Source of the DNA: an uncultured Alphaproteobacteria bacterium
GTDB lineage: Bacteria; Pseudomonadota; Alphaproteobacteria; Rs-D84
Length of the DNA: 64,000 bases
Reading direction: 5' to 3'
Assembly (NCBI GenBank): GCA_934230415.1
Contig: CAKQEW010000004.1
Location: forward strand, 1,445-65,444
A program made the translations under genes and the position numbers. The notes beneath the pieces were generated by a model. It ran no database searches. It saw nothing but the letters and a program-made list of their open reading frames with translations, and was not told the origin of the DNA. Positions 19,531 to 34,528 of this stretch are shown here, piece by piece; position 1 is the first letter of the stretch, and each line of letters opens with the position of its first letter.

Positions 19531-19559
19531 TTGACTTTTATTGCGATTTGTGATACTAT
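19531..19559 (+). promoter_or_regulatory. Consensus-like promoter TTGACT-17-TACTAT
   Basis: -35 at 19531-19536, -10 at 19554-19559, 17-nt spacer. Confidence 0.5.
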
Positions 19560-19585
19560 ATGACACATCAACAAGCAAGATTCTG

Positions 19586-19607
19586 TCCGCATATAGCGGA
19601 TTTTTTT
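19586..19607 (+). terminator. Intrinsic terminator 1 upstream of the lysis genes
   Basis: TCCGC-atata-GCGGA followed by T7. Confidence 0.55.
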
Positions 19608-19619
19608 ATGCTGTTTTTT

Positions 19620-19648
19620 GACCGCGAATTTCATCGCGGTCTTTTTTT
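19620..19648 (+). terminator. Intrinsic terminator 2 upstream of the lysis genes
   Basis: 8-bp stem GACCGCGA-atttca-TCGCGGTC followed by T7. Only 24 nt remain before the endolysin ATG. Confidence 0.8.
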
Positions 19649-19671: not shown

Positions 19672-20076
19672 ATGGAACTGATTTTGAATCCAGACCATAC
19701 GCGTGGCGATGCATACAAAATTGCGCGTGTTGTTTATGCCGAAACAGGTGCGACATCGTTGCCATTGGTTGAAGGATTCGCATCAATGATTGCAAATATC
19801 GCACGTGCACGTGGTATATCACCCGTAATGGTTGTGTCTGATGAAAATACGTTTGGTGCGCTGCGTCCGAATAATTCGCGTCATGGCGCATTAAATGTAC
19901 GGCCAGATTCACGTGCGTTTCAAATGTGCCTGCGTGTGGTGACGCGAATGCTGCATGGAAATTTACCAGATTGCTGTAATGGCGCAACACGTTTCCATCG
20001 TGATGATGAAATGCCAGATTGGGCAACATCGCGTGGATATATCGCCGATATTGATGGTGTGCTGTTTTATTTGTAG
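19672..20076 (+). CDS. Cell-wall hydrolase, SleB / Hydrolase_2 family (endolysin)
   Basis: IARVVYAETGATS...MIANIARARG...ATRFHRDDEMPDWA pattern of SleB-type amidase/lysin domains. Confidence 0.75.
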   Translation: MELILNPDHTRGDAYKIARVVYAETGATSLPLVEGFASMIANIARARGISPVMVVSDENTFGALRPNNSRHGALNVRPDSRAFQMCLRVVTRMLHGNLPDCCNGATRFHRDDEMPDWATSRGYIADIDGVLFYL

Positions 20077-20086
20077 TGGTGGTGAT

Positions 20087-20290
20087 ATGCAAAAAATAAT
20101 TAATGGTGGTTTTTTGTCGGACCGGCGCACGCAAATAATGTCATGTGTTGGCGTGTTATCAGCGGTGGCGGCATATGTGGTCGGTGACACGGATGTGTTT
20201 GTCATGTTACAGACGATATTCACATTGGGTGGAATTTATTTTATGAACAAACAAAAAAACAAAGGACATGATGATGGAACAAATTCCTGA
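20087..20290 (+). CDS. Holin-like small membrane protein (two predicted TM helices)
   Basis: 67 aa; GGTGGTGA RBS; hydrophobic stretches IMSCVGVLSAVAAYVV and VFVMLQTIFTLGGIYFM; charged C-terminus; lies directly after the endolysin. Confidence 0.5.
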   Translation: MQKIINGGFLSDRRTQIMSCVGVLSAVAAYVVGDTDVFVMLQTIFTLGGIYFMNKQKNKGHDDGTNS

Positions 20291-20930
20291 AAAATTTAAA
20301 AATTCTGATGGAACATTAAACACAGATGCATTATTGAAATCTTATTCTGAATTGGAAAAGAAAATCGGAACGATGATATCAATACCATCATCCGACAGTG
20401 ATGATGCCGCGCGTGCACGATTTAATCATGCAATTGGTGTGCCCGAATCGGCCGATGAATATCCACAAAATGATTTGTTTGATGATGCTGATGTGCGTAA
20501 AAAATTCTGGGACATAGGTTTAACTTCATCCCAGGTTGAAAAAATTTATCAGGTTGCCCAGGATTTTTTATCACCTGTGTTGTCTGATTTATTTACAGCA
20601 CAACAAACAGAATCAGCAATATCAGAATTGCGAAATTATTTTGGTGGTGATGAAAAAATGCAAACGGCAATGCGTGAAATAAATGCGTTTGGTACGCGTT
20701 TCTTGCCCGCGGATGCGTTTGATGAATTATGTTCCAGTCCCCAGGGAATCCAAGGTGTTTATCAAATGATGCAATCAATGGAACCACATGTACAAACGTC
20801 CGATGCGAATGATACAAATTTATCAGATAATGATTTGCGACGCATGATGCGTAATCCAAAATATTGGCGCGATCATGATTCTGAATACGTGCGAAAAATT
20901 GAAAACGGTTTTAAAAAATTATATTCGTGA
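20268..20930 (+). CDS. Putative phage scaffolding protein
   Basis: N-terminus IPEKFKNSDGTLNTDALLKSYSELEKKIG recalls podovirus scaffold/assembly proteins. Acidic and helical; positioned before the capsid gene. Confidence 0.5.
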   Translation: MMMEQIPEKFKNSDGTLNTDALLKSYSELEKKIGTMISIPSSDSDDAARARFNHAIGVPESADEYPQNDLFDDADVRKKFWDIGLTSSQVEKIYQVAQDFLSPVLSDLFTAQQTESAISELRNYFGGDEKMQTAMREINAFGTRFLPADAFDELCSSPQGIQGVYQMMQSMEPHVQTSDANDTNLSDNDLRRMMRNPKYWRDHDSEYVRKIENGFKKLYS

Positions 20931-21036
20931 TGAAAAATTTTCACTTTCTTCTTTACTAACTTTTATGTTTCATATAAAATATAAAGTAAGAACAAAAAAA
21001 TTTGTTCTATCCAAAAAAATATAAAAGGAGAGAAGA

Positions 21037-21387
21037 ATGGCATTCACATTCTTGAAACCAGCAGCGAAAAAAATTGCTGCGAAAAAACCGGCTGCAAAAC
21101 CAGCAGCAAAAAAAACTGTTGCAAAACCAGCTGCTAAAAAAGTAGCGGCGAAACCAGCAGCAAAGAAAGTTGCGGTTAAAAAGCCAGCGGCGAAAAAACC
21201 AGTCGCAAAGAAAGTCGTTGCGAAAAAACCGGTTGCTAAAAAACCAGTCGCAAAGAAAGTTGTTGCGAAAAAGCCAGCGGCAAAAAAGCCAGTTGCAGTG
21301 AAAAAACCAGTTGCTAAAAAAGCACCTGCGAAAAAAGTCGCTGTGAAAAAGCCTGTTGCGAAAAAAGCACCGGCCAAGAAAAAATAA
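21037..21387 (+). CDS. Lys/Ala/Pro-rich histone H1-like protein (AKKPAAKK repeats)
   Basis: 116 aa made almost entirely of degenerate (P/V)AAKK(P/V)(A/V) repeats. Strong RBS AAGGAGAG; own terminators downstream. Confidence 0.75.
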
Positions 21388-21396
21388 TAAATATTT

Positions 21397-21419
21397 CCCC
21401 ATCGTTTGATGGGGTTTTT
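21397..21419 (+). terminator. Intrinsic terminator
   Basis: ccccatcgtttgatgggg plus T5. Confidence 0.75.
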
Positions 21420-21432
21420 AATTGAAAAAATT

Positions 21433-21468
21433 TTCAGTCGTATCATGTATGCGACTGAATCTTTTTTT
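21433..21468 (+). terminator. Second tandem intrinsic terminator
   Basis: TTCAGTCG-11 nt-CGACTGAA followed by cT7. Confidence 0.65.
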
Positions 21469-21597
21469 ACGGACAATTTCGGGTAACCGAAACCCGCATG
21501 TGTTTGTCATGTGGCGCGATTTCGCATAACCGTGTGATGAATTTTTGTCGGCGCATTTTTGCGTCTGTTTTTATTTATAACCAATGGGGGATTTTTT

Positions 21598-22428
21598 ATG
21601 TCTGTTTCCATAGATAATGTTTTTATTAAACAGTTTGAGGCAGATGTTCATCTGGCATATCAACAGATGGGCACAAAACTGCGCGGGACCGTACGCAGCA
21701 AATCGGGTGTCGTCGGTGCATCCACAACATTTCAAAAGGTTGGACGCGGAACCGCGGCAACAAAATCACGTCATGGCATTGTGCCGGTTATGAACCTGAA
21801 CCATGAACCGGTGGAATGCACATTACAGGATTATTATGCCGGCGATTGGGTTGATGCATTGGATGAATTGAAAACCAATGTTGATGAACGCCGTGTCGTG
21901 GCATGTGCCGGTGCGTACGCGTTGGGTCGCAAAACCGATGAATTGATTGTGAACGCAATGTCGGGCGCAACAACATCGGTTGGTGATTATTCCCAGGGAT
22001 TAAGTAAATCGCTGATTTTATCCGCGGTTGAACAATTAAATGCCAAAGATATCCCAGATGATGGCCGCCGTTTCGCGGTTGTTGGCGTGCACCAGTGGAA
22101 TGAATTACTGGGGATTAACGAATTTGTTTCTGCGGATTACGTTGGTGATGATTTGCCATTGATTTCTGGGGGCGCATCCAAAAAATGGTTGGGTATCACA
22201 TGGGTTCTGTACAACGCATTGCCGTTGACCAGCACGACCCAGCGTGATTGCTTTATTTACCACGCAACCAGTATCGGTCATGCCTGTGGCCAGGAAGTCA
22301 AAACAGATATTTCATGGCATGGTGAACGTGCGGCGCACTTTATCAGCAACAGTATGTCCCAGGGCGCCGTTCTGATTGATGGTGATGGTATCGTTCGTAT
22401 TAAATGCAAAGATACCGATGCCGATTAA
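21598..22428 (+). CDS. Putative major capsid protein
   Basis: 277 aa after the scaffold gene. N-terminus FIKQFEADVHLAYQQMGTKLRGTVR..., as recalled from podovirus capsid proteins. The assignment rests mainly on gene position. Confidence 0.55.
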   Translation: MSVSIDNVFIKQFEADVHLAYQQMGTKLRGTVRSKSGVVGASTTFQKVGRGTAATKSRHGIVPVMNLNHEPVECTLQDYYAGDWVDALDELKTNVDERRVVACAGAYALGRKTDELIVNAMSGATTSVGDYSQGLSKSLILSAVEQLNAKDIPDDGRRFAVVGVHQWNELLGINEFVSADYVGDDLPLISGGASKKWLGITWVLYNALPLTSTTQRDCFIYHATSIGHACGQEVKTDISWHGERAAHFISNSMSQGAVLIDGDGIVRIKCKDTDAD

Positions 22429-22463: not shown

Positions 22464-22694
22464 ATGGCGTTTCAGAATAAAAATCTGTCTGTAATTGCAT
22501 ATGCAAATGGTTTTACATTGTGGCACTATGCGGAAAACACGACATTGGCAACAATCACGGCCAGTGGGTATTTTAACAATGTCAAAACACTGATGAACGA
22601 TGGCGATATTGTGATTATTAATGCGTCGGATAAAACGGCGATTAAATCCATCGCGATTGCATCTGGGGCGGTTACAACGGCGGCATTGTCGTAA
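22464..22694 (+). CDS. Small virion-module protein (76 aa)
   Basis: Compact ORF between the capsid and tubular A-like genes (SVIAYANGFTLWHY...GDIVIINA). Confidence 0.5.
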   Translation: MAFQNKNLSVIAYANGFTLWHYAENTTLATITASGYFNNVKTLMNDGDIVIINASDKTAIKSIAIASGAVTTAALS

Positions 22695-22754
22695 ATTTTA
22701 TCGGTATTTTATATATGGGTCGGTGTTCGCGCCGGCCCTGTTTTAATCAAAGGA

Positions 22755-23282
22755 ATGATAGGTATGCTGACCAAAATAGATTTATGTTCCATGGCGTTAC
22801 TGAAACTGGGTGAACGTCCGATACAATCGTTGGTTGATGACAGTGCGGCCGCACAACTGGCGCGGACGTTGTTTGATCCGGTGATTGATGCATTGATTGC
22901 GGCGCATCCGTGGCGATTTGCCACGCGCCAAATTCATATGGTAAAAAATTCAGATGGGGATTTTTTAATCCCGGCGGATGTATTACGCGTGATAAAAACG
23001 TGTGGCGATATTGTTGGCAATAAAATTCATGCCCCCACAGATACGATGGATATTGTTGCGTTGGTACGCGTTGCCCCGGATGCATTCCCGGCGTATTTTG
23101 TGTCAGTGGCGGCAACGCGATTGGCCATGGAATTCTGTGTGCCATTGACCGGTGACCAGAATGTATTTCGCATGTTGGCGGCACTGTATGAATCAGAATT
23201 ACAATCGGCGAAATTCACAGACAGTACCACAGCACCGGCGCATGCCATTGATAATTTTTCATTGCTGAATGCACGGTTTTAA
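22755..23282 (+). CDS. Tail tubular protein A / adaptor-like
   Basis: IDLCSMALLKLGERPIQSLVDDSAAAQLARTLFDPVIDALIAAHPWRFA pattern seen in gp11-like proteins of BPP-1/T7-type podoviruses, in the expected position. Confidence 0.55.
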   Translation: MIGMLTKIDLCSMALLKLGERPIQSLVDDSAAAQLARTLFDPVIDALIAAHPWRFATRQIHMVKNSDGDFLIPADVLRVIKTCGDIVGNKIHAPTDTMDIVALVRVAPDAFPAYFVSVAATRLAMEFCVPLTGDQNVFRMLAALYESELQSAKFTDSTTAPAHAIDNFSLLNARF

Positions 23283-23297
23283 TTTCGGGGGACAATT

Positions 23298-24995
23298 ATG
23301 GGAAATTTCGTAAAAACACAAAATTCGTTTGCCAACGGCGACATTGCCCCAGAATTTTATGGCAACGATAATTTGCACGCGTTGTCACGTCTGGAAAATA
23401 TGGACGTGATGGCGGGCGGTGGGCTGTGCCGACGTGCCGGTTTGACCACGGTTACAGAAATTGCATCAGGGGCGCGACTGGTGCCGTTTTCGGCGGGTAT
23501 GTCCCAGAATTACCTGGTGGCGTTGTTGCCGGGACATATGTACCTGTATTATGGTGGCGTGCGTATCCAAGATATTGTTGCGCCATGGACCGCCGATGAC
23601 ATAGCGTCTGTTCAATATGCCCAGCGTTTTGATACCATGATTTTCGTGCATCCAGAATACAGTCCGCGAATACTGCGCCGTCGGGCATCGCAATTCACGT
23701 TGGATGAATTTGCATTTGCGCGAAATGATGCCGATATGTCACGTGCCCAGCCATTCATGCGATTTGATGATACGTCTGATATCACGATTACTGTTACGGC
23801 ACATGCCAGTGGTAATAACTATGCCACATTTACAACCAACCGTGCGTTTTGGAATTCAAATTATGTGAATACGCGCATATTTGCCATGGACCGGCAATGG
23901 ATAATCCAAGAGGTCACAGATTCCACCACCGCCAAGGCATATACCAATGGGCCGTTCACATTGCCATCTGCGCCAATATCAGAATGGCGTGAATCGGCAT
24001 TCAGTGCCGCACGCGGTTGGCCCGTCAGTATCACGTTTCACCAGGACCGTCTGGTATTCGGTGGGTCGCGTGATTATCCGGCGGGCGTATGGATGTCGCG
24101 TACCGGTGCACACACGAACTTTGATGTCGGCACCGGATTGGATGACCAGGCGATTTTTATCACGTTGCTGTCCAGTCAACGTCAACAGATTTGCACCGTG
24201 GTCAGCAGTGATAATCTGCAAATCCTGACCACAGTTGGCGAATGGGCGATTTCCAGCAAACCATTGACACCATCGTCGGTTGACATAAAGCAACACACGT
24301 CTGTGGGCAGTATTGCCACGCGTTTCCTGGCCCCGCAAAAGATAGAGGGCGCAACCGTATTCGTATCCAGAACCGGTCGCGATATTCGCGAATTGGATTT
24401 GGATGAATTAGGCGAAAATTACAACGCCACAGATTTATGCGCGTTTTCAAAACACCTGGTGCAATCGCCGGTTGATATCGCGTACAACAGTGCTGTGCGC
24501 CAAATGTTCGTTGTTCGCACAGATGGCAAAATGGCGGTGTTGAATCAAAACAGCGCGTTGGGGATATCGGCATGGGGACTGTACACGACCGCCGGTGAAT
24601 TCAAATCGGTTGCGGTCTGTGGCGATGAAACATTTGTGCTGGTGGCGCGCGCGGGAAAATTCTGGATTGAAAAATTTGACGCGACGCAAATGTTGGACGC
24701 GGGCGTTTATACGTTTGACGTTGTGGCGGCCGGATTGCCGCTGCGGGCGTCTGGGCATAACGCGATGCGTGTGCGTATCCGCCAGGTATCCGTACGCATA
24801 CGTGATACACGCACGTTGTTTATAAACGGTGTGCGTGCGGCATTGCCGGATGCGACCGGATTCACCGGTGATGTGGCGGTAACAACACTGGGGTGGACGC
24901 GTAATGCCACCGGTGCGCCATGGACAATTCACACAAACGAACCGTTGCCAATGACAATCATGTCGGTCGTCGTGCGCGGATATTACACAATATAA
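23298..24995 (+). CDS. Tail tubular protein B / nozzle-like
   Basis: N-terminus QNSFANGDIAPEFYGNDNLHALSRLENMDVMAGGGLCRRAGL matches the gp12-like N-terminal pattern (NxxxGxxSP...GGxxRRPG). 565 aa. Confidence 0.55.
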   Translation: MGNFVKTQNSFANGDIAPEFYGNDNLHALSRLENMDVMAGGGLCRRAGLTTVTEIASGARLVPFSAGMSQNYLVALLPGHMYLYYGGVRIQDIVAPWTADDIASVQYAQRFDTMIFVHPEYSPRILRRRASQFTLDEFAFARNDADMSRAQPFMRFDDTSDITITVTAHASGNNYATFTTNRAFWNSNYVNTRIFAMDRQWIIQEVTDSTTAKAYTNGPFTLPSAPISEWRESAFSAARGWPVSITFHQDRLVFGGSRDYPAGVWMSRTGAHTNFDVGTGLDDQAIFITLLSSQRQQICTVVSSDNLQILTTVGEWAISSKPLTPSSVDIKQHTSVGSIATRFLAPQKIEGATVFVSRTGRDIRELDLDELGENYNATDLCAFSKHLVQSPVDIAYNSAVRQMFVVRTDGKMAVLNQNSALGISAWGLYTTAGEFKSVAVCGDETFVLVARAGKFWIEKFDATQMLDAGVYTFDVVAAGLPLRASGHNAMRVRIRQVSVRIRDTRTLFINGVRAALPDATGFTGDVAVTTLGWTRNATGAPWTIHTNEPLPMTIMSVVVRGYYTI

Positions 24996-25017: not shown

Positions 25018-25368
25018 ATGGGACAATTGGTTTCTGATGTACAACAAGTACTGGATTACAAAAAGAATAAACAACAGGCCGCGACACAACGCCAGAAAAT
25101 ATTGGCTGATATGGCCGCCGATGAACAGACAAAAACAAACCTGGTGAAAAAGGCACTGGCGACCCAGCGTGCGAAATATGGCGCATCTGGGATGTCGGCA
25201 AACACCGGTGTTACCGAGGGGGCGGTTTTGCGCCGTCTGCAATCCGAAACGGCCCAGCCATATGATGAAAAACGCCGGAATTCATTGGAAAAATTGCGCA
25301 AGGTTGGGGCGGCAAAGCCGAACCTGTTAAAGACATTATTGGCGCGATTTGATGATTTGGTTGGATAA
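25018..25368 (+). CDS. Small helical virion/internal protein (116 aa)
   Basis: Position between nozzle and fibre genes; Gln/Lys-rich and helical. Confidence 0.45.
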   Translation: MGQLVSDVQQVLDYKKNKQQAATQRQKILADMAADEQTKTNLVKKALATQRAKYGASGMSANTGVTEGAVLRRLQSETAQPYDEKRRNSLEKLRKVGAAKPNLLKTLLARFDDLVG

Positions 25369-25380
25369 CAGCGGGGGCAT

Positions 25381-25929
25381 ATGATGTATAAAATTTCGTA
25401 TGTTGCCGATGGTACAACCACAGAATTTGCATTCGCGTTTCCATTCTTTCAGGTGGCCGATGTTCATGTTGCAATTGATGATGCGGCAACTGATTTATCA
25501 TACGCGGTTATTCCAAACGACGATTTTACTGGTGGTAATGTTGTGTTTGACGTTGCGCCGGCAACAGATGCCCGCGTGGATATATTTCGCCAGATTTCAT
25601 TATCGCGTGTGATTGATTACCAGCCCACAATGCCAATTGACCCAGAATCATTGAACGCGGATTTTAATTTTCTGTTGGCGGCATTTTGTGATTTAAAGAA
25701 AGTGGATGTTGACCTGGGGCAATGGTCAAACACATTTGATAATGTTATGACATTTTTGAAATACAACATGGCGGTAATTCAAGACAAATTGTCGGGTGGG
25801 GGCGTTATGGGACTGTACCAGAATTTGGTATCGGTATTGGATGGTGCGTTGCCGAAATTGATAAATGATTACGGCCATATCACAGATGTCGCCCCAAACG
25901 AAAATCGCGATGATTACGGCGTTTTATAG
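25381..25929 (+). CDS. Tail fibre protein, T7 gp17 N-terminal-domain type (short, 182 aa)
   Basis: YVADGTTTEFAFAFPFFQVADVHVAID...VDIFRQISLSRVIDYQP...LNADFNFLL parallels the T7 gp17 N-terminus (YQLDGSNRDFNIPFEY..V.V....VDFTDGS..LN). Confidence 0.6.
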   Translation: MMYKISYVADGTTTEFAFAFPFFQVADVHVAIDDAATDLSYAVIPNDDFTGGNVVFDVAPATDARVDIFRQISLSRVIDYQPTMPIDPESLNADFNFLLAAFCDLKKVDVDLGQWSNTFDNVMTFLKYNMAVIQDKLSGGGVMGLYQNLVSVLDGALPKLINDYGHITDVAPNENRDDYGVL

Positions 25930-25933
25930 TTTT

Positions 25934-26521
25934 ATGGACGAATGGAACCATATGCTGGGGATGACAACGCCGGCACATCATCGGCGAATAATGAAATTCT
26001 TGGTTGATGTGTGGACGTCGCCGCCACGACGTGGGTTGTTGATGGCGTTTCGGCATTCTGGAAAATCCAGTGTGGTTGGTATATTTGCGGCATGTGTGCT
26101 GTGCATGCGACCTGAAACACGGATATTGATTTTGTCGGCGGAAAGTACACTGGCAGCGCGTATGGTTGGGCATATTCGCAATATATTGGAAAACCATCCG
26201 CGGTGCAGTGATATGGTGCCACCCGGCCGCCGCACATGGGCATGCAACCAGATAACGGTAAATCGTCCAATTGGTATACGTGAACCATCGGTCGTATGTG
26301 CGGGCATCGCTGGAAATATCACAGGCGCACGTGCGGATTTAATTATCTGTGATGACATAGAGGTTCCAAACACCAGCAATACCGCGCAAAAGCGCGAGAA
26401 GTTGCGCGACCGGTTATGTGAATTGGAATTTATACTGTCGCCCGGCGGAACGATGATTTACATCGGTACGCCGCATACCATGGATACGATTTACCGCACG
26501 GGTGATGAACAATCAGATTGA
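25934..26521 (+). pseudogene. terL: Terminase large subunit, N-terminal ATPase half (gene interrupted)
   Basis: Walker A FRHSGKSS, Walker B ADLIICDD, IGTPHTMDTIY, then a stop after 10 unrelated-looking codons. Confidence 0.75.
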
Positions 26522-27193
26522 TGTTGGTGCATCCGGTGCATTGTCCGATTCCACCGGTTCGCGCGTGCTGATAAACGTACGCAGTTTATGCAACAATTCG
26601 TCGCCGGATTCCCCGAACATCGGCAGATATGTTTCATATTCTGGCATATCAGCCTGTAATTGTGCGCGTGCACGTTCGGACAATGGTTCATTCAACATAT
26701 CCGATGCCACATGCCACAGGTAATATGCGCGATATGTTTTCGTGATGACATTCCATTTGTCCATTAATTCTGGGCGTACCGCCAATGCGGCGCGGATTGC
26801 AACCGGCCACTCGTCACCGAATTTTTTAATAACCGGTAAATTCTGAATCCGTGTCAATCCATCATTATCAGGTGTAAAGTTATCAATCCCATTTTGCAGT
26901 TCCGACCATTCATCATTGGTCAATTGAATCTGGGGAACAATCTGGGCCATCTGGCCGCCATATGGTAACAGTTCGCGTTCAATGGAATCCATTGGGGTTT
27001 TCCCACTGCGCAGGTTTTCAATATGCTGAATCAACATTTTGCCGGTTGGCAATGCGCGCAATTCGCGAATGACATCCAGGTCTGCTTCGTCAACAAAGAC
27101 GCGATTGACCGCTGCCCATCCGCCAAAAATAACGTGTTCCTGGCGGTACAGATTTAACAGTTTTTGTGCAACAACGCTGGCTGTGGTTTTCAT
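26513..27193 (-). CDS. Hypothetical protein (226 aa) in the terL-splitting cassette
   Basis: GGAGAGAGAG RBS region at 27197-27210. Its stop overlaps the stop of the TerL-N ORF. Confidence 0.6.
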   Translation of the reverse strand: MKTTASVVAQKLLNLYRQEHVIFGGWAAVNRVFVDEADLDVIRELRALPTGKMLIQHIENLRSGKTPMDSIERELLPYGGQMAQIVPQIQLTNDEWSELQNGIDNFTPDNDGLTRIQNLPVIKKFGDEWPVAIRAALAVRPELMDKWNVITKTYRAYYLWHVASDMLNEPLSERARAQLQADMPEYETYLPMFGESGDELLHKLRTFISTREPVESDNAPDAPTSI

Positions 27194-27218
27194 GTGGGGC
27201 TCTCTCTCCTGTATGGGG

Positions 27219-28232
27219 TTATTCCATGATAATCATTATGACCTTGTGCATGGTTGGTGCGACAATTTTTTCATCAGGCGATGCGATTTGACCATAAATC
27301 TTGCCACGGGAATCCTGGCGTACACTGGCGATTTGGGCCGTTGCCGCCGTTTCATAATCCAATGTGTCAAAATCAGTATCAACGCACACGGCCAGATCGC
27401 CAACCGCCGGGGTTGCGGTGCTGTCTGCAAATACATATGCGTGTTCCGACATAAATCCGCCCAGGCGTTTTGGATTTGGTACAACGGCATAGATACCCGC
27501 GTGGCCTTCCAGTGACATGGGGGCAACAATCATTGTTTCATCAGATTTTTTGAACGCGATTGCCTTGCCCGATGGCGTGCCGAACACCGGCACCAGTTTC
27601 CGGCGCGCACTGTCATACAATTTGGCGCCATACAAACCGCCATGTTCATGATTGTCCAGACTGGATGCCGGATTATCAGGCACCAATACAGAATTAACAC
27701 GTTCGTTAACCTTGTTAATTTGTTTGTTCAATTCGCCGGATTTATACAATGCCGCGATTCTGTCAAACAGTTTTTCGGCACTGGTCGCGAATGCCTTGGC
27801 CAATGGTTCAATTTCGTTCTGGTATATTTCGCGCTGGCCAACTTCTATCTTGTGATATACAGATAATGTCATCCCGGCGTCATGTGCGATTTGGGCGATG
27901 GTTTTACCCAGTTGCTGGCGCATCTTGCGCAGGCCGCTGCCAAAGACCTTCAGTCCATTGTCTTCGTTATCGTTCAGGCGGCGTTTAATTTCGTCTTGCC
28001 ATTGACCGGCGACGGCGTCATCTTCCTTGATAAAGATATCAGACAGTTTGCATCCCAAAATATTACAGATATTCAGCAACTGTTTCTGGTTCAGGCGACG
28101 GACACCCTTTTCAATCTTGGATATCGCGGACAGGGACAGGTGTGATCGCCGTGCCAATTCGGTCATTTTCATGCCCGCCGCAATACGAATGTTGCGAATG
28201 TTATTTGGAAATATGATTTCTTCTAGGGCCAT
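27219..28232 (-). CDS. Tandem XRE-HTH repressor-like protein with S24 (LexA/CI)-like C-terminal domain
   Basis: Two HTH_3 units (IRIAAGMKMTELARRSHLSLSAISKIEKG and LRKMRQQLGKTIAQIAHDAGMTLSVYHKIEVG). C-terminal LVPVFG...FADSTATPAVGDLAVCV...IASVRQD resembles the GDSM..GD..V..KR fold. Confidence 0.7.
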   Translation of the reverse strand: MALEEIIFPNNIRNIRIAAGMKMTELARRSHLSLSAISKIEKGVRRLNQKQLLNICNILGCKLSDIFIKEDDAVAGQWQDEIKRRLNDNEDNGLKVFGSGLRKMRQQLGKTIAQIAHDAGMTLSVYHKIEVGQREIYQNEIEPLAKAFATSAEKLFDRIAALYKSGELNKQINKVNERVNSVLVPDNPASSLDNHEHGGLYGAKLYDSARRKLVPVFGTPSGKAIAFKKSDETMIVAPMSLEGHAGIYAVVPNPKRLGGFMSEHAYVFADSTATPAVGDLAVCVDTDFDTLDYETAATAQIASVRQDSRGKIYGQIASPDEKIVAPTMHKVIMIIME

Positions 28233-28259
28233 GGCAAAAACTCCTGCGGTTAATATTTC

Positions 28260-28278
28260 TTGACAAAATATTAGTCAA
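28260..28278. promoter_or_regulatory. Inverted repeat TTGAC-9-GTCAA overlapping a minus-strand promoter of the repressor-like gene
   Basis: The minus strand reads TTGACT-17-TATTAA. The palindrome covers the -35 element. Confidence 0.3.
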
Positions 28279-28305
28279 TTTTTGCGCGCGCCGCAAGTAA
28301 AATAA

Positions 28306-29865
28306 TTACAATTCCATATCATCTGGAATGGCCGATGCGTCAATTTGTTCAATTGGTGCATCGTCGCCTGGCATTGGGGTTGACGATTGTGACGTGCCAA
28401 CGGCGAAATCATTTTCACCACGGGCATCCATTTCGTCCAAATTGTCAAACAAACTGTAATCACCAAAGAACGCGGTACGAACGGTTTCTGGACGGCCATG
28501 ACGGTTCTTGCCGATAATAATGTCGGCCTTGCCCCGGGCGCGTTCCAAACGGCGTTGATATGATTCCTGAATTTTATCATTGGTATTGCCAGAAATACGC
28601 TGTGACGGATCGCGGTTTTCCAGATAGTATTCTTCGCGGTACGTGAACATAACAATATCGGCGTCCTGTTCAATAGATCCGGATTCACGCAGGTCGGCCA
28701 ACTGGGGGCGTTTGTCATCGCGGTTTTCAACGCTGCGTGACAACTGGGACAGGGCAATAACCGGTACATCTAATTCCTTGGCCAACATTTTCAGCCCACG
28801 CGTGATTTCAGAAATTTCCTGGACGCGATTATCGCTGCGTCGGCCACCGGGGGACGTCATCAATTGCAGATAGTCAATCACAATCAGTGCAATCCCGCCA
28901 CATTTACGTGCCAGACGGCGCGCACGCGTGCGCATCATTGGCACCGACATGCCGGGCGTGTCGTCAATGTACAATGGCACGCGACTGATTGCGGCGGCGT
29001 ATTGCGACATTTTCAGGAAATCTTCGTCTGAAAACGATCCTTCGCGCATGGCAGATGCCGGAATTTTTGATTGCGATGCCAGCACACGGGTTGCCAACTG
29101 TTCCTGGGACATTTCCAGACTGAAAAACACAACCGCGCCCTTGTACTGTTCATTGGCGCGACCCGATAAAATTGCATTTGCGGCGTTAAACGCGATGTTC
29201 ATGGCCAGGGTCGTTTTACCCATTGCCGGACGACCTGCGATAATAATCAAATCACTGTGGTGCAGGCCGCTGATGGATTTATCCAACGCGTTCAGACCCG
29301 TGGTCAGACCCGACAGTTTTCCGTCGGCCTTGTATGCAACCTCGGCCTCTTTTAATGCGGCGGTCAGTGCGGTTGCGATGGGCGCAACCTCACGCTTGGT
29401 TTCCCCCGCGGCGGCCAGGTTAAATAATTTCTGTTCGGCGGTTTCAATTTGTGTCGTGACCGGGTTATCCAAATCTTCAACAAATGCCTGGTCGGTGATG
29501 GATTGACCCAGTTCAATCAATTCGCGACGCAGTGCGTTTTCATACACGATGCGCGCGTACTGTTCAACGTTCACAACCGTTGCGCCGGCGCCCGCCAATT
29601 GGGTCAGGTAATCAACACCGCCAACCGATTCCAACACACCCTGTTGATCCAGGTAATTTTTCGCCGTGATGATATCAAATGGAATTCCGGCGGCAAATTG
29701 ACGTTCCGCCAGTTTATAGATTTCCTGGTGCGCGGGGTGCGAAAAATGTTCCGGTCGCAGGAATTCGTTTACGCGTTCCAATGCGCGGTTGTTCATCAGC
29801 ACCGCGGCCAGGACGGCCTGTTCGGCCTCTAAATTCGTTGGCAAAGTTTTGGGAGTAAAGTCCAT
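28306..29865 (-). CDS. dnaB: Replicative DNA helicase DnaB
   Basis: NLEAEQAVLAAVL N-terminus, Walker A GRPAMGKTT, VVFFSLEMS, IVIDYLQLM, ALSQLSR, SGSIEQDADIVMF. Start set at MDFTPK (29865), not the 655-aa ORF start. Confidence 0.92.
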   Translation of the reverse strand: MDFTPKTLPTNLEAEQAVLAAVLMNNRALERVNEFLRPEHFSHPAHQEIYKLAERQFAAGIPFDIITAKNYLDQQGVLESVGGVDYLTQLAGAGATVVNVEQYARIVYENALRRELIELGQSITDQAFVEDLDNPVTTQIETAEQKLFNLAAAGETKREVAPIATALTAALKEAEVAYKADGKLSGLTTGLNALDKSISGLHHSDLIIIAGRPAMGKTTLAMNIAFNAANAILSGRANEQYKGAVVFFSLEMSQEQLATRVLASQSKIPASAMREGSFSDEDFLKMSQYAAAISRVPLYIDDTPGMSVPMMRTRARRLARKCGGIALIVIDYLQLMTSPGGRRSDNRVQEISEITRGLKMLAKELDVPVIALSQLSRSVENRDDKRPQLADLRESGSIEQDADIVMFTYREEYYLENRDPSQRISGNTNDKIQESYQRRLERARGKADIIIGKNRHGRPETVRTAFFGDYSLFDNLDEMDARGENDFAVGTSQSSTPMPGDDAPIEQIDASAIPDDMEL

Positions 29866-29890
29866 GTCCAATATAGTATCTAAAAATTTT

Positions 29891-30709
29891 ATGTTTTCAA
29901 CGCCTTTTTTGCGCGGATATAAAACATTGAAAATTCCGATTGTTGATGATGCCGGCGCGTCCACGTGGCCCGAATTATTCCCCGCATCGCGCATTGCCGA
30001 ATTGCGGGACGCGGTGGGGGCGCGGCATTTTGCCGCGCAAATGATGTTACAATGCGTCGCGCCCGAACGTGTGCGTCTGGACCCGGGGGCATTGCATTTA
30101 TATGATGACGCATTTGACGCGCGCAATGCGCAAATCGGCGAACATAAAATTACCGGCGCGGCGATGTATTGGGATCCATCAACCGGGCGCCGTGGTCGCG
30201 ATGGCAGTGTTTGCGTCATGCTGTATCGTGATGATAAATCGCGCGCCATATTTATCCATGATGTGATGTACATGATTGTCCCTGAAAACGATACGCACCC
30301 ATTGGCATCCCAGTGTGATTCTGTGTTGGATTTTATGGCGCGGTATCATATGCGCCGCATAACGATTGAAACCAACGGTATTGGAAATGCATTGCCGGAA
30401 ATTATGCGAAACGCCGCATTGATTGCCGGCGCAGACGTTTCTATAACCCAGATTACAAATAATCGGCCAAAGGTTGACCGAATTCTGGACGCGATTGAAC
30501 CGGCATTGACCGCCGGGCGTATGTATGCGCATCGCCGAATTACCCAGACGCCGTTTGTGGCCGAAATGATGGGATGGTCGCCGGGTGGGGTGGGGCATGA
30601 TGACGGACTGGACGCGGTGGCGGGCGCGATATGTGCCACGCCGACCCCGGTTCGCCCGGTCGGGGCGCCCCCCCACACATTTTCAGCAAATACGAATTTT
30701 ACCGTTTAA
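29891..30709 (+). pseudogene. terL: Terminase large subunit, C-terminal nuclease half (possible restart at ATG 29891)
   Basis: KIPIVDDAGASTWPELF, AAMYWDPSTG, ITIETNGIG, GHDDGLDAVAG. Same strand as the N-terminal half, 3.4 kb downstream. Confidence 0.7.
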
Positions 30710-30736: not shown

Positions 30737-31960
30737 ATGCAAAATAACCTGGAACAAATGTACCGACGTGCGCTGGACATGCGTGCGCCATGGGTTGCGC
30801 GTTGGGATGCCGCAATGCGGTACACAATGCCGACAACAGATGCAGATGCGGCAACGCTGTTTGACGCAACCGCGGCCGATGCGGTGGATAACCTGGCCGC
30901 GTCAATATATTCACTGATGACGCCACCGGAATCACTGTGGTTGACATTGGTGCCGGAAAGCGATGCATCACCCGATGCAGACGCCGCAACGGCGGCATTG
31001 CGCGCACACCTGAACGATTCTAATTTTTATACAACGATTCATCAGTGCTATTTGGATTTGGTGATTCTGGGGACGGCATGCCTGTTTATGGCAGAAACCC
31101 CGATGGGGGCATCGTCGGCATTTTCATTCACCGCGGTACCAATGCGCGATATTGCAATTTTGCCGGGCGCGGTATTTCATACGGCGACAATGCCTGCGCG
31201 TGAAGTCATGGAAAAATACCCGACATGGACGCCACCCACAGAAATTCGTGACCAGATAAAACGCGACCCGGCAATGCCGTTGCGCCTGGTGCAGAGTTTG
31301 GTCGGCACAGAATTCACCGCGTGGTTGGACGTGGGTGGTGACATCCAAAATAACATTGTTGCGCGTGGCACATTTGAAACCAACCCATATATCATTTTCC
31401 GGTGGAGTGTTTTGAGCGGTGAACAATACGGTCGTGGTCCCGTCTTGCGCGCATTGCCAGATATCAAGACAGCAAACAAGGTTGTTGAACTGGTTTTGAA
31501 AAATGCGACCATTGCGGTGTCTGGAATATGGCAGGCCGATGATGACGGTGTCATAAACCTGAATAACATAAACCTGACGCCGGGGGCAATTATTCCAAAG
31601 GCCGTTGGGTCGTCCGGTTTGACGCCGCTGTCATCGGGTGCAGATTTTGATGTGTCACAAATAATACTAAAAGACCTGCGTGAACGGATACGTCATGCAT
31701 TGCTGGCCGACCGGCTGGGATTGTTGTCTGAAAAAGAAATGACGGCGACCGAAATTATGGCACGTAATTCAGATATGATGCGAATCCTGGGGGCGACATA
31801 TGGGCGACTGTTGCATGAATTTATACGGCCACTGACCGACCGCGGATTACAGATTTTATCGCGCCGCGGTGTGATTGCACCAATTGTGCTGAACAGTGAT
31901 GCGGAATTGAAATACATTGCACCGATTGCCCAAATGGTGGCGGACGAAAACCTGATTTAA
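30737..31960 (+). CDS. Portal (head-to-tail connector, T7 gp8-type) protein, short form
   Basis: N-terminus YRRALDMRAPWVARWDAAMRYTMP and the position next to terL. 407 aa is shorter than the ~530 aa of T7 gp8. Confidence 0.6.
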   Translation: MQNNLEQMYRRALDMRAPWVARWDAAMRYTMPTTDADAATLFDATAADAVDNLAASIYSLMTPPESLWLTLVPESDASPDADAATAALRAHLNDSNFYTTIHQCYLDLVILGTACLFMAETPMGASSAFSFTAVPMRDIAILPGAVFHTATMPAREVMEKYPTWTPPTEIRDQIKRDPAMPLRLVQSLVGTEFTAWLDVGGDIQNNIVARGTFETNPYIIFRWSVLSGEQYGRGPVLRALPDIKTANKVVELVLKNATIAVSGIWQADDDGVINLNNINLTPGAIIPKAVGSSGLTPLSSGADFDVSQIILKDLRERIRHALLADRLGLLSEKEMTATEIMARNSDMMRILGATYGRLLHEFIRPLTDRGLQILSRRGVIAPIVLNSDAELKYIAPIAQMVADENLI

Positions 31961-31975
31961 CATGGGGAAAAAACT

Positions 31976-32170
31976 ATGAACGAAATTGAACAGAACTATG
32001 CACGCACGTTTGCGACCACATCTGGCACGGCGGTATTACAGCATTTGCGTCGGATGACAATTGAACGTGTGTTGGGGCCAAATGCAACGGACGCCGAATT
32101 GCGCGGCCTGGAATCCCAGCGCGCGTTGGTGCACATGATTGAAAATATGATATCACGGGGGCGAAAATGA
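31976..32170 (+). CDS. Small phage protein (64 aa, Bbp19-like by recollection)
   Basis: Compact ORF after the portal gene; its stop overlaps the next start (ATGA). Confidence 0.45.
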   Translation: MNEIEQNYARTFATTSGTAVLQHLRRMTIERVLGPNATDAELRGLESQRALVHMIENMISRGRK

Positions 32171-32427
32171 CACAGAAAACAAACGCGCTGGGCGGAATCA
32201 TAGATACATTGCGCGACAGTTGGTTTCTGATTGCATTTGTCGCGGGTATGGTTTATTGGGTTGCGCGCCAGGATTCATCGCTGGCGGATATTCAGCGCGC
32301 AGACACGCGCATTACAACATTGGAAAATCGTACAACGATATTGGAAACGGGTATCGGGCAATTACAGATAAAACTGGACACAATTCGTGATGATGTATCC
32401 TTGATAAAAACCGCCGTTATAAAGTAA
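32167..32427 (+). CDS. Small membrane-anchored coiled-coil protein (86 aa)
   Basis: One TM helix (WFLIAFVAGMVYWVA) followed by a coiled coil. Translationally coupled to the previous ORF. Confidence 0.5.
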   Translation: MTQKTNALGGIIDTLRDSWFLIAFVAGMVYWVARQDSSLADIQRADTRITTLENRTTILETGIGQLQIKLDTIRDDVSLIKTAVIK

Positions 32428-32428
32428 C

Positions 32429-32455
32429 AAAAACGGGGCGGACGCCCCGTTTTTT
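32429..32455. terminator. Bidirectional intrinsic terminator ending the phage-like cluster
   Basis: aaaaacggggcggacgccccgttttt. Confidence 0.8.
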
Positions 32456-32466
32456 ATTTTATTTGA

Positions 32467-32610
32467 TTATTTGCCGCAGCTGCCAATCATTTTAGAGATA
32501 GAGATATCTTTGTGGAACAAGAAATCGTATTCGCAGTTACCAGATTTGTAAGAACCTGTGCATGCAGCCAATGTCAAAACAGCAACCAGTGCCAACATAA
32601 CTTTTTTCAT
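32467..32610 (-). CDS. Small lipoprotein (47 aa)
   Basis: MKKVMLALVAVLTLAAC lipobox; GGAGAA RBS. Confidence 0.5.
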   Translation of the reverse strand: MKKVMLALVAVLTLAACTGSYKSGNCEYDFLFHKDISISKMIGSCGK

Positions 32611-32734
32611 GTTTTCTCCTTTTGTCCAAAAGTTCGCATGGATTATATCCGACCGTATTCCTAAAAGCAATACAAAAATCACCCTAATTTTTTTACCCAC
32701 ACATAAAAAACGCCCCGGGGTGGGGCGCCTTGTA

Positions 32735-34528
32735 TTATCCGACTAATTTTTGCCAGAATGTTTTCTTTTGCGGCTGCTTTTTCCGTTTGCGACGTGGTGC
32801 ATTCATGGTTGTCTTTTTTGCATCCATGTGCTGTGCATCCTTCTTTTTTGCATCTGTGGATGGCGCATATGCGTCCAACAGTTCATCCGTCTTTACCGCG
32901 TCCGGGGCAACACGCTGAATTGAATACTGGTCAATGTTCATCATGCTGTCGTCGCCGACAATCACGATCTCTGTTTCAAATTCAGATTCCATTGCCGCCA
33001 ATTCTGCACGTTTGTGGTTCAGCAAATACACCGCCACATCGGTCGGAACCGTCATGATGATTTTCTGGGCACTTTTCGCCAACAGTTTTTCCTGCAGATG
33101 GCGGAACATAATCAACGCCGCCGTCTGGATAGATGGCACAACGCCGGCCCCCAGACAGTGTGGGCACTGAACATATGATGTTTCAATGAAACTGCTGCGC
33201 AGGCGCTGGCGCGACAACATCAACACGCCAAACGTATTGATTTTCGCAACCTGGGTACGGGCGCGGTCACGTTTCATAACCTCGCGCATTTTCATTTCCA
33301 GTTTGCGGTTGTTGCGTTCTTCTTCCATATCAATAAAGTCAATTGCAACAATCCCCGCCAAATCGCGCAGGCGCAACTGCAGGGCGATTTCTTCGGCCGC
33401 CTCTAAATTAGTATTCAGTGCGGTTTGTTCAATATCTTTTTCCTTTATCGCGCGGGACGAATTCACGTCAATTGTAACCATTGCTTCGGTCTGGTTAATA
33501 ACCAATGACCCACCAGATGGCAACTGAACATACGGACCATGCAATCCTTCTAATTGTTTTTCAACGCCGGCCTTGACCATCAATGGAACCGCGGCGTCCT
33601 TGTAATTTACCAACTGTTTGCGCGGGGCGCGACCATACATCTGTTGAAAATATGTTTTTGCGGCATCATATGCTTCTTCGCCCTGGATAACCAGAACATC
33701 ATCCTTGTCCGCCAAGAAATCACGAACGACACGGCGCAACAGGGAATCTTCGGTATGAATTGTGACCGGGGCGACCGATTCCAGGGTCGTCTTGCGGATT
33801 TCGTTCCACAAATTCACCAGGTAATCATAGTCCGCCGCAATCGCCGCTGCATCGGCACCAAACGCCGCCGTACGCAAAACGACCGTCATCCCCTTTGGTA
33901 TTTTCAGGCCGTGCAAAATTTCGCGCAGACGGGCACGTTCGGCCTTGTCTGAAATCTTTTTAGAAATGCCATAGCTGTTGCGTTTGCGGGAATTTGGCAT
34001 CAGAACGGCAAAACGCCCCGCCAATGACAGGTATGTTGTCATTGACGCGCCCTTTTGGCCACGTTCTTCCTTGACACCCTGAATCAGCAAAATCTGTTTT
34101 GGCTTTATAACATCTTGAATTTTAAATTCACGTGCGCGTTTGACGAACTCTTTGTTGTCTTCGCCGGCACTGTGGTCATCGTATTCGGCAACCTCGTCAT
34201 TTTCGTCATCGGGGTCATCATCGTCATCAACGATGTTCGCATGCGCCAATTCCAACAGTTTCTTTTTCTGTTCTGGCGATACCTGGTAATAATCCGGATG
34301 AATTTCAGAAAACGGCAAGAATCCGTTTTTGCCTGTGCCATAATCCACGAATGCCGCCTGCAACGACGGTTCAACGCGGATAACCTTGGCCAGATAAATG
34401 TTCCCTTTTATCTGGGGCTTTGTTGTTGTTTCAACATCAAAATCAGAAACACGATTGGTCGCAGTATCCACCACCACCACGCGGGTTTCTTCCGGGTGGA
34501 CAGCGTCCACATAGATTTTCTTTGACAT
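32735..34528 (-). CDS. Ribonuclease E/G family endoribonuclease
   Basis: S1 domain GNIYLAKVIRVEPSLQAAFVDYG, acidic insert, VTIDVNS, CPHCLGAG zinc-link motif, basic C-terminal tail. Confidence 0.85.
   Translation of the reverse strand: MSKKIYVDAVHPEETRVVVVDTATNRVSDFDVETTTKPQIKGNIYLAKVIRVEPSLQAAFVDYGTGKNGFLPFSEIHPDYYQVSPEQKKKLLELAHANIVDDDDDPDDENDEVAEYDDHSAGEDNKEFVKRAREFKIQDVIKPKQILLIQGVKEERGQKGASMTTYLSLAGRFAVLMPNSRKRNSYGISKKISDKAERARLREILHGLKIPKGMTVVLRTAAFGADAAAIAADYDYLVNLWNEIRKTTLESVAPVTIHTEDSLLRRVVRDFLADKDDVLVIQGEEAYDAAKTYFQQMYGRAPRKQLVNYKDAAVPLMVKAGVEKQLEGLHGPYVQLPSGGSLVINQTEAMVTIDVNSSRAIKEKDIEQTALNTNLEAAEEIALQLRLRDLAGIVAIDFIDMEEERNNRKLEMKMREVMKRDRARTQVAKINTFGVLMLSRQRLRSSFIETSYVQCPHCLGAGVVPSIQTAALIMFRHLQEKLLAKSAQKIIMTVPTDVAVYLLNHKRAELAAMESEFETEIVIVGDDSMMNIDQYSIQRVAPDAVKTDELLDAYAPSTDAKKKDAQHMDAKKTTMNAPRRKRKKQPQKKTFWQKLVG

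Follow-up and report, generated by a model that had tools for sequence, protein, structure and literature searches.

How does a replication gene of the cell come to lie inside the packaging gene of a virus, and what becomes of the gene that it divides? These questions are posed by a 64,000-nt stretch of DNA (hereafter the window) from an uncultured Alphaproteobacteria bacterium of the Rs-D84 lineage (assembly GCA_934230415.1, contig CAKQEW010000004.1, positions 1,445 to 65,444 of the forward strand). In its region 25,934-30,709, two plus-strand open reading frames (ORFs) resembling the two ends of a phage large terminase subunit (TerL) are separated by three minus-strand genes, one of which is dnaB. 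The explanation we favor, and hold to be probable if far from assured, is that the locus belongs to a domesticated cluster of T7-type virion genes, similar to a gene transfer agent (GTA), in which a two-piece terminase still functions and has become interlocked with dnaB.

The window was compared with 22 genome loci from a scan that retained one genome per species, 9 IMG/VR contigs, 4 metagenome loci obtained with a DnaB query, and 4 further contigs. The genome loci derive from metagenome-assembled genomes of uncultured gut Alphaproteobacteria, several of them named Candidatus Enterousia, and their hosts are humans, sheep, deer, horses and others. Enterousia belongs to Rs-D84, an order with genomes of ~0.75-1.0 Mb (PMC12306168).

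One terminase in two genes

The divided gene and the cassette between its parts comprise the following features.

25910-26521, plus strand: TerL-N, the ATPase core of the terminase (Pfam Terminase_6N, PHROG 38, NF033889), with its probable start.
26513-27193, minus strand: u226, a 226-amino acid (aa) orphan with an all-helical model.
27219-28232, minus strand: regulator of 337 aa with two helix-turn-helix (HTH) domains (Pfam HTH_3 twice).
28306-29865, minus strand: dnaB, 519 aa (NF006606, TIGR00665).
29864-30709, plus strand: TerL-C, the end of the ATPase domain and an RNase H-like nuclease (Pfam Terminase-T7_RNaseH-like and Terminase_6C, PHROG 38; gene call P0001, 281 aa).

Both terminase ORFs match PHROG 38 (terminase large subunit) over consecutive parts of the profile, the first (25934-26521, plus strand) at positions 289-459 (E=2.9e-42) and the second (29891-30709, plus strand) at positions 466-701 (E=2.9e-32). 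Likewise, the NCBIfam model termin_lrg_T7 (NF033889) is matched by TerL-N at positions 2-191 of 500, with 226 bits, and by TerL-C at positions 330-500, and TerL-N aligns with residues 52-212 of T7 gp19. Used as a fused query, the two sequences align over 95-99% of their length, at 41-45% identity, with intact homologues of 470-500 aa from other Alphaproteobacteria, for example Roseospira, Skermanella and Roseococcus. In these alignments the pieces abut in a variable-length loop between the motifs GTPHxxxTIY and PFLxGF, and all conserved residues are retained. The comparison confirms, well past anything that chance would give, the prediction that the two ORFs are adjacent, non-overlapping parts of a single T7-type TerL, and the interpretation in the initial annotation, that an insertion rather than erosion produced the split, holds.

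Since 3.34 kb separates the halves in every related sequence, the single polypeptide expected of a T7-type TerL is not encoded. Its functional elements are nevertheless present on the two pieces, with Walker A, Walker B and coupling motifs in TerL-N and an RNase H-like domain with conserved acidic residues in TerL-C. Across 21-22 species the Walker A (SGKS), Walker B (ICDD.EVP) and GTP motifs are invariant or nearly so, as are the nuclease motifs WDPS, DGS, ETNG and HDDGLDA, and 95 of the 195 columns in the TerL-N alignment are invariant.

The TerL-N start initially placed at 25934 has been revised. Because residues encoded upstream of this position align with the N termini of intact TerL proteins, the conserved start is probably ATG 25910, which overlaps the end of the preceding fibre gene. 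At the other end, TerL-N terminates with TIYRT followed by zero to eight mostly acidic residues, and its stop codon overlaps or abuts that of u226; the overlap reported earlier for the window was verified and measures 9 nt. One relative (L019 938-1615) encodes a TerL-N without the usual stop, which runs ~30 residues longer and overlaps the 3′ end of u226 by 84 nt. An apparent duplication linking the end of TerL-N (DTIYRT) to the beginning of TerL-C (DIVYEN) was considered and set aside, as only two of the six residues match and the codons for IV are the −10 box of dnaB on the opposite strand.

The location of the break was mapped onto an AlphaFold2 model of an intact homologue (P0033), which has a mean predicted local distance difference test (pLDDT) score of 92. 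Foldseek matched this model to the large terminases of PhiV-1, T4, T7, HK97, Sf6, D6E and P74-26, and structures consisting of the ATPase domain alone align over ~260-280 of its columns. Walker A (residues 50-54) and Walker B (146-151) precede a strand (176-186) that ends in the GTP motif, after which follow a coil (187-206), another strand (207-211), helices (228-257) and, from ~265, the nuclease. The break maps to residues ~197-201, in the coil. The division is thereby placed in a tolerant, variable surface coil such as is expected of a split-enzyme loop, and it falls within the ATPase domain rather than between the ATPase and nuclease domains. Although the motifs by which the halves were first called ATPase and nuclease are correct, TerL-C also holds the end of the ATPase domain. 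Because the last strand and helices of that domain reside on TerL-C, a working enzyme would require complementation between two polypeptides.

The split is neither recent nor sporadic. In 20 of the 22 genome loci, tblastn recovered every part of the arrangement with order and orientation unchanged, while the other two end at a contig edge in dnaB. The conserved order is scaffold, capsid, tail tube A and B, TerL-N, u226 (minus), regulator (minus), DnaB (minus), TerL-C, portal, a Bbp19-like gene and an 86-aa gene. All nine IMG/VR contigs carry the split, with the same region trimmed as provirus calls, and so do all four loci from the DnaB-query metagenome scan in which DnaB identity is at least 77%. 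The four further contigs also carry it and have the same left flank; one is 958,617 bp long and has a name that we take to follow the circular-contig style of hifiasm-meta. No deviating arrangement was found among the ~40 related sequences.

TerL-C is 55-80% identical to that of the window in the 20 genome loci and down to 52% across all sequences, the lowest value being that of the most divergent metagenome locus (L040); the range for TerL-N is 68-88%. Both ORFs are intact in every locus with one exception, which is considered below. Internal stops in u226 of L014 and DnaB of L019 proved to be artefacts of ORF extension. Ratios of nonsynonymous to synonymous substitution (dN/dS), approximated by the Nei-Gojobori method from the less saturated species pairs, are 0.04-0.09 for TerL-N and 0.035-0.16 for TerL-C; those for DnaB and portal are 0.02-0.085 and 0.02-0.07.

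Synonymous divergence between species ranges from 0.4 to more than 1.5, which implies that the split is old. When protein distances are correlated with those of DnaB, r is 0.80-0.88 for TerL-N, TerL-C, portal, capsid and tube B, 0.67 for scaffold, and 0.93 and 0.87 for the cassette proteins u226 and regulator. The rates of portal and capsid are as low as that of DnaB. This co-divergence argues for vertical co-inheritance and not for repeated infection. We are highly confident that the arrangement is ancient and fixed and that both TerL halves are under selection.

Overlapping signals and the inserted genes

Two signals lie at the junction of dnaB with the second terminase fragment.

29853-29866, plus strand: TerL-C ribosome-binding site (GGAGT) and start codon ATG 29864, which shares the palindrome CATG with the dnaB ATG.
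29873-29900, minus strand: dnaB promoter-like site TTGAAA-16-TACTAT, separated by 7 nt from the dnaB ATG.

The junction was compared in 39 sequences, all of which contain the CATG, where CAT represents the minus-strand start of dnaB and the ATG (29864-29866) shares the reading frame of TerL-C. The TerL-C frame from this ATG is not interrupted even where a sub-lineage has gained 18 nt. A different codon, ATG 29891, had been proposed to restart translation of TerL-C, yet it is found just in the window and a few close relatives, and most relatives have no start codon at this place; the conserved start is ATG 29864. Seven nucleotides upstream of the conserved start, all 39 sequences carry the ribosome-binding site GG(A/G)GT, which is the antisense of dnaB codons Thr4-Pro5. 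Because the signals for terL-C lie inside dnaB, translation of terL-C and portal would need an RNA that starts antisense within dnaB or reads through the cassette, within which no strong plus-strand terminator was found.

The dnaB promoter-like site in turn lies inside the first nine TerL-C codons. The pattern TTGNNN-16/17-TANNNT is present in 38 of the 39 sequences, and in 32 it is spaced 7 nt from the ATG. Such spacing without a ribosome-binding site is the geometry predicted for a leaderless mRNA, as the initial annotation had proposed for the window. Six sequences (L005, L008, L009, L012, L034 and L039) carry an 18-nt in-frame insert between the −10 box and the ATG (region 29866-29890), which extends the spacing to 25 nt, creates an AAGGA ribosome-binding site and gives TerL-C six additional codons. 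This variant may represent a natural switch from a leaderless to a leadered dnaB mRNA.

Searches of 25.8-30.8 kb for direct or inverted repeats, att-like repeats and a target-site duplication yielded short repeats at chance level. With junction repeats gone, the insertion mechanism cannot be recovered. An Rfam scan of the full window for introns and ribozymes reported four tRNAs alone, and no intein-sized extra segment is present at either TerL fragment end. The 3.3-kb cassette has no recombinase domain by Pfam, PHROG or NCBIfam, and lacks the recombinase, repeats and patchy distribution that mark satellites or phage-inducible chromosomal islands. Its genes rank among the most conserved of the locus.

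DnaB scores 612 bits against NF006606 (cut-off 540) and 514 bits against TIGR00665 (cut-off 385), while its 416 bits against the phage_DnaB model do not reach the cut-off of 499. With full-length N- and C-terminal domains, it is classed by these models as a cellular-type replicative helicase, which upholds one of the two original readings, that a replication gene of the cell lies inside a phage packaging gene. Its identity to the window is 72-94% across loci. The DnaB-query metagenome search gave no alternative dnaB context at 52-76% identity, which, along with genomes of less than 1 Mb, indirectly suggests that this may be the sole dnaB. The next-closest DnaB loci (at most 51% identity) have none of the cluster genes nearby; one of them, L044, contains unrelated ordinary chromosomal genes and is uninformative on the ancestral context of dnaB.

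The regulator was first described as a CI-like, S24-like repressor. Its two XRE-type HTH (HTH_3) domains are evident, and the N-terminal 70 residues are nearly invariant, but the S24 assignment is unsupported. The C-terminal 143 aa have no Pfam match even at E≤1, and neither BLAST nor hhalign profile comparison links the protein to the S24 repressors of related elements described below. Identity across loci is 70-84%, and dN/dS is 0.04-0.08.

For u226, no match exists in Pfam, NCBIfam or PHROGs. Among its 1241 homologues, the best 120 have identities of 67% or more and no Pfam family, and those listed come from close relatives. An AlphaFold2 model (pLDDT 78.5) is all-alpha and has no significant fold match in the PDB. 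Its dN/dS is ~0.1. We regard u226 as a lineage-restricted protein, predicted to be all-helical.

The virion gene cluster and its likeness to known elements

The split terminase is part of a cluster of ~12.9 kb (~19.5-32.45 kb of the window) whose virion genes are T7-like and lie on the plus strand. In addition to the features given above, it contains the following.

19531-19559, plus strand: promoter-like site TTGACT-17-TACTAT with TG, opening the cluster; 10 of 12 positions are matched at the equivalent place in L018, L010, L118 and L120.
19585-19648, plus strand: tandem pair of terminator-like hairpins (with U-runs) in the leader that precedes the first gene; layout conserved, hairpin sequences different.
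19672-20076, plus strand: endolysin-like cell-wall hydrolase (Pfam Hydrolase_2 below the curated cut-off; PHROG 938 endolysin, E=3.5e-7), conserved in related loci.
20087-20290, plus strand: small hydrophobic protein, a candidate holin; ORF residues 45-111 conserved across loci.
20268-20930, plus strand: T7-type scaffolding (capsid assembly) protein (Pfam Phage_T7_Capsid, 32 bits), 63-74% identity across loci.
21037-21387, plus strand: Lys/Ala/Pro-repeat, histone H1-like protein of 116 aa between scaffold and capsid (Pfam HC2, 59 bits; cut-off 40).
21598-22428, plus strand: major capsid protein (Pfam Phage_capsid_2, E=5e-70), 80-95% identity across loci, dN/dS 0.02-0.08.
22464-22694, plus strand: conserved virion-module protein of 76 aa (PHROG 18004, E=5e-13), conserved across loci.
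22755-23282, plus strand: tail tubular protein A-like (PHROG 394 tail, E=6.6e-32; weak Pfam Tube match).
23298-24995, plus strand: tail tubular protein B or nozzle-like (PHROG 376 tail, E=1.4e-84).
25018-25368, plus strand: conserved protein of 116 aa, 52-82% identity across loci, with no family match in Pfam, NCBIfam or PHROGs.
25381-25929, plus strand: short tail-fibre protein; residues 5-100 match PHROG tail and tail-fibre families, a resemblance of the N-terminal region.
30737-31960, plus strand: portal protein of the T7 gp8 type (Pfam Head-tail_con, E=2e-84), 76-97% identity across loci and 78-97% in the genome loci.
31976-32170, plus strand: Bbp19-like small virion-module protein (Pfam Phage_Bbp19, 42.7 bits; cut-off 25).
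32167-32427, plus strand: protein of 86 aa with one hydrophobic segment, the final gene of the cluster; 62-93% identity, weak PHROG matches.
32429-32454, both strands: strong bidirectional terminator-like hairpin closing the cluster, with 11 pairs and T-runs on both strands.

Pfam and PHROG scans found neither an integrase nor phage replication genes in the cluster. It is flanked by ordinary chromosomal genes, with lipB upstream and, on the downstream side, genes for a lipoprotein and an RNase E/G-like protein. Conservation extends to the left flank, as lipB is present in relatives and L120 also shares genes for a tRNA methyltransferase and an outer-membrane protein. On the right (32467-34528 compared with the regions downstream in L001-L022), conservation is absent, with a small lipoprotein gene often present 3′ of the cluster, and no related locus was found to have the RNase E/G-like gene (32735-34528) on that side. 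With GTAs the cluster has in common that it is chromosomal, is composed of phage structural genes, has no integration or replication functions, is vertically inherited and is under purifying selection. The initial annotation had overlooked that the surrounding cluster itself appears to be a domesticated, vertically inherited element.

The HC2 histone-like gene, present in 20 of 20 loci checked with a product of 81-159 aa, may encode a DNA-condensing component of the particle. A minus-strand ORF at 20970-21476 was rejected as a gene, being a longer antisense frame of this Lys-rich plus-strand gene. The candidate holin is called as a gene of 73-74 aa in L118 and L120, and the Bbp19-like gene adjoins the 3′ side of portal, as it does in related intact elements. 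A GC-rich terminator-like hairpin (22717-22738, plus strand) is located directly 3′ of the capsid and 76-aa genes. In phage operons, this is the usual site for an attenuator that raises the level of capsid transcript.

The leader layout of a promoter followed by tandem hairpins is found in five species (window 19531-19648; L018 316-435; L010 215-315; L118 17157-17047 and L120 17670-17569, both minus strand), and the hairpins have fold z-scores of −3.2 to −6.4. This layout suggests control by antitermination, in which read-through would be regulated. As in the lambda late operon (PR′, tR′ and Q), a strong promoter comes first and terminator hairpins, here within ~25-90 nt, come next, before a long operon for lysis and morphogenesis. 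However, lambda has Q, whereas no antiterminator or Q-like protein was identified for the cluster and the u226 model has no PDB match, so that the likeness is one of layout. The lysis genes are the endolysin-like gene and the candidate holin, and no regulator could be linked to the leader promoter or terminators.

Compact T7-like elements with intact TerL occur in other Alphaproteobacteria (L025 7320-19650, L027 1548-12334 and L028 1511-12572). They measure ~10-12 kb, lack both integrase and replication genes, and share with the Enterousia cluster the families of portal, Bbp19, T7 scaffold, capsid_2, tail tube A and B, TerL and Hydrolase_2. Their TerL is a single gene, 41-45% identical, and they are flanked by a divergent S24-type repressor. 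Unlike the Enterousia cluster, they carry no dnaB, u226 or double-HTH regulator, and the portal and hydrolase blocks are swapped between the two arrangements. The gene orders of the three elements are circularly permuted relative to one another, and two adjoin lnt. They could be GTA-like elements or minimal prophages, and no description of this type was found in the literature. The shared gene content suggests that the Enterousia cluster derives from an element of this kind.

Known GTAs (RcGTA-type in Alphaproteobacteria, BaGTA, VSH-1 and FpGTA) likewise consist of a chromosomal cluster that encodes head, tail, packaging and lysis functions but neither an integrase nor replication proteins, inherited vertically throughout a lineage under purifying selection. 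The FpGTA of Faecalibacterium is also from the gut and is podovirus-like (PMC12946183). By contrast, RcGTA is composed of HK97-type siphovirus genes, and the Enterousia cluster is T7-type (Phage_capsid_2, Head-tail_con portal, tail tube A and B). No CtrA boxes are nearby; the one match to TTAA-N7-TTAA in the window is far from the cluster and at chance level. GTAs package host DNA, while the Enterousia cluster is known here from its genes. A terminase gene split by host genes has, to our knowledge, not been reported for any GTA.

A precedent for the function of a divided enzyme gene is nrdA of Aeromonas phage Aeh1, which is split by mobE and whose fragments reassemble into an active ribonucleotide reductase (PMC3045599). 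In both nrdA and terL, inserted DNA has cut an enzyme gene into two ORFs that are retained. The insert in Aeh1 is a homing endonuclease gene, whereas that in terL is 3.3 kb of opposite-strand, cellular-type genes including dnaB. Moreover, Aeh1 is a phage and the Enterousia cluster a putative domesticated chromosomal element, in which TerL reassembly is postulated. Literature on phage-like clusters of Enterousia and Rs-D84, on T7-like GTAs and on split terminases contained no description that we could find of this arrangement.

Competing explanations and biological meaning

We propose that the cluster descends from a compact T7-like podovirus element that has been inherited vertically in Rs-D84/Enterousia. 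In the ancestor of the sampled lineage, a block of 3.34 kb comprising u226, the regulator and the cell's dnaB would have landed in terL in the opposite orientation. TerL-N would supply the Walker A/B core and TerL-C the next beta-strand, the helices completing the ATPase domain and the nuclease, with the two fragments reassembling non-covalently. The junction would then have become interlocked through the shared CATG, the dnaB promoter in terL-C codons and the terL-C ribosome-binding site antisense to dnaB. Most likely the cluster continues, as GTAs do, to produce particles that package DNA, and it may be switched on from the strong promoter and two leader terminators by a mechanism resembling antitermination.

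Several observations weigh against this proposal. GTA-type function is read from conservation, and every sequence compared is a metagenome assembly from an uncultured organism. Synonymous divergence is near saturation in many species pairs, which is why the dN/dS values are approximate. The ATPase fold is cut after the GTP motif, and its non-covalent reassembly is conjectural. No other enzyme gene of the cluster evolves as fast as TerL-C, whose protein distances are ~2 times those of DnaB, and TerL-C is disrupted by a deletion and frameshift in one IMG/VR contig (L037 2191-2951), the sole broken copy of ~38, where either the assembly is wrong or the gene has truly been lost. The fibre gene is absent from L010, L018, L020, L040, L041 and L118, where the rest of the cluster is kept, implying that the receptor-binding part is variable or dispensable. 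Finally, PHROG profile searches found no T7 internal core proteins and no recognisable small terminase.

Some of these observations are shared by the main rival to a two-piece terminase, namely that packaging is dead. According to this alternative, the split inactivated the terminase, and the fragments, perhaps with the rest of the cluster, were kept for other reasons, for example as a separately co-opted nuclease and ATPase, or because of the interlock with dnaB. The position of the cut, the rapid evolution of TerL-C and the missing small terminase and core proteins are what it would predict, and the overlap of the dnaB promoter and start with the 5′ end of terL-C makes that end undeletable. 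However, the interlock protects a few dozen bases, yet dN/dS is 0.04-0.16 over the whole fragments and their motifs are conserved. Capsid, portal, scaffold and tail genes are constrained like DnaB, which is sensible only if particles are built, and the genomes are strongly reduced. For these reasons we regard the loss of packaging as quite unlikely.

It is improbable, to a greater degree, that the locus is a small temperate phage or phage-like replicon whose replication module (DnaB, a repressor and an initiator-like u226) sits in terL, in a host that either has another dnaB or has lost its own and come to depend on this one. A helicase gene beside an HTH regulator and an orphan does resemble a phage replication and immunity module, the IMG/VR pipelines call the region viral, and the related intact elements show circularly permuted gene orders. 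In opposition to these resemblances, DnaB passes the cellular equivalog threshold and falls below that for phage_DnaB, the arrangement co-diverges with the host lineage beside a conserved left flank, and neither an integrase nor att-like repeats were found. Nor did the search at 52-76% DnaB identity give any other dnaB context, and the related intact elements are without DnaB.

Rejoining of terL on demand has very little to commend it at this locus, whether the cassette were to be excised or inverted in the DNA of producer cells or the halves spliced as RNA or protein. Developmentally excised elements that interrupt genes are known, as exemplified by skin of Bacillus and the nifD element of Anabaena. 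The absence of above-chance repeats at the junctions and of a recombinase in the cassette makes a comparable excision hard to envisage, and splicing finds no intron or ribozyme family in the window and no intein-sized segment. TerL-C, moreover, is equipped with a conserved start codon and ribosome-binding site of its own. More doubtful still is the alternative offered in the initial annotation, in which a mobile or satellite-like element has recently entered the terL of a prophage. Although an opposite-strand block carrying a regulator cuts the gene cleanly, it is fixed in ~40 sequences with TerL-C identity down to 52%, saturated synonymous divergence and distances that rise with those of DnaB; no integrase, recombinase, junction repeats or target-site duplication was found, and the cassette genes are among the best conserved of the locus. 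An assembly artefact at ~26.5 or ~29.9 kb is scarcely credible, for although all data are metagenome assemblies, ~40 independent ones from different hosts and projects, one of them the 958,617-bp contig, have identical junctions with sequence conserved across both.

Thus, the explanation we prefer remains that of a domesticated, GTA-like cluster whose terminase works in two pieces and is interlocked with dnaB. A bolder form of it, which we put forward tentatively and consider unlikely, is that the cluster is an undescribed T7-type GTA with an obligate two-polypeptide motor, in which terL-C and portal are expressed solely antisense through the cell's only dnaB. If this is true, particle production and the supply of the replicative helicase would be genetically interlocked, such that induction interferes with dnaB expression, or dnaB transcription gates particle production. 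No other instance is known to us of a presumably essential cellular replication gene that lies, with shared start codons and overlapping signals, within a virus-derived packaging gene throughout a lineage.

In genomes of less than ~1 Mb, ~13 kb of useless DNA is unlikely to persist, and the ~1.4% of the genome kept for the cluster argues for a real benefit. That both halves are under strong selection implies that a viral packaging ATPase remains able to work after division within its ATPase fold. The split TerL may therefore be viewed as a natural experiment that bears on the folding and assembly of terminase motors, and the cluster as a candidate for a new podovirus-type GTA in widespread, uncultured gut symbionts.

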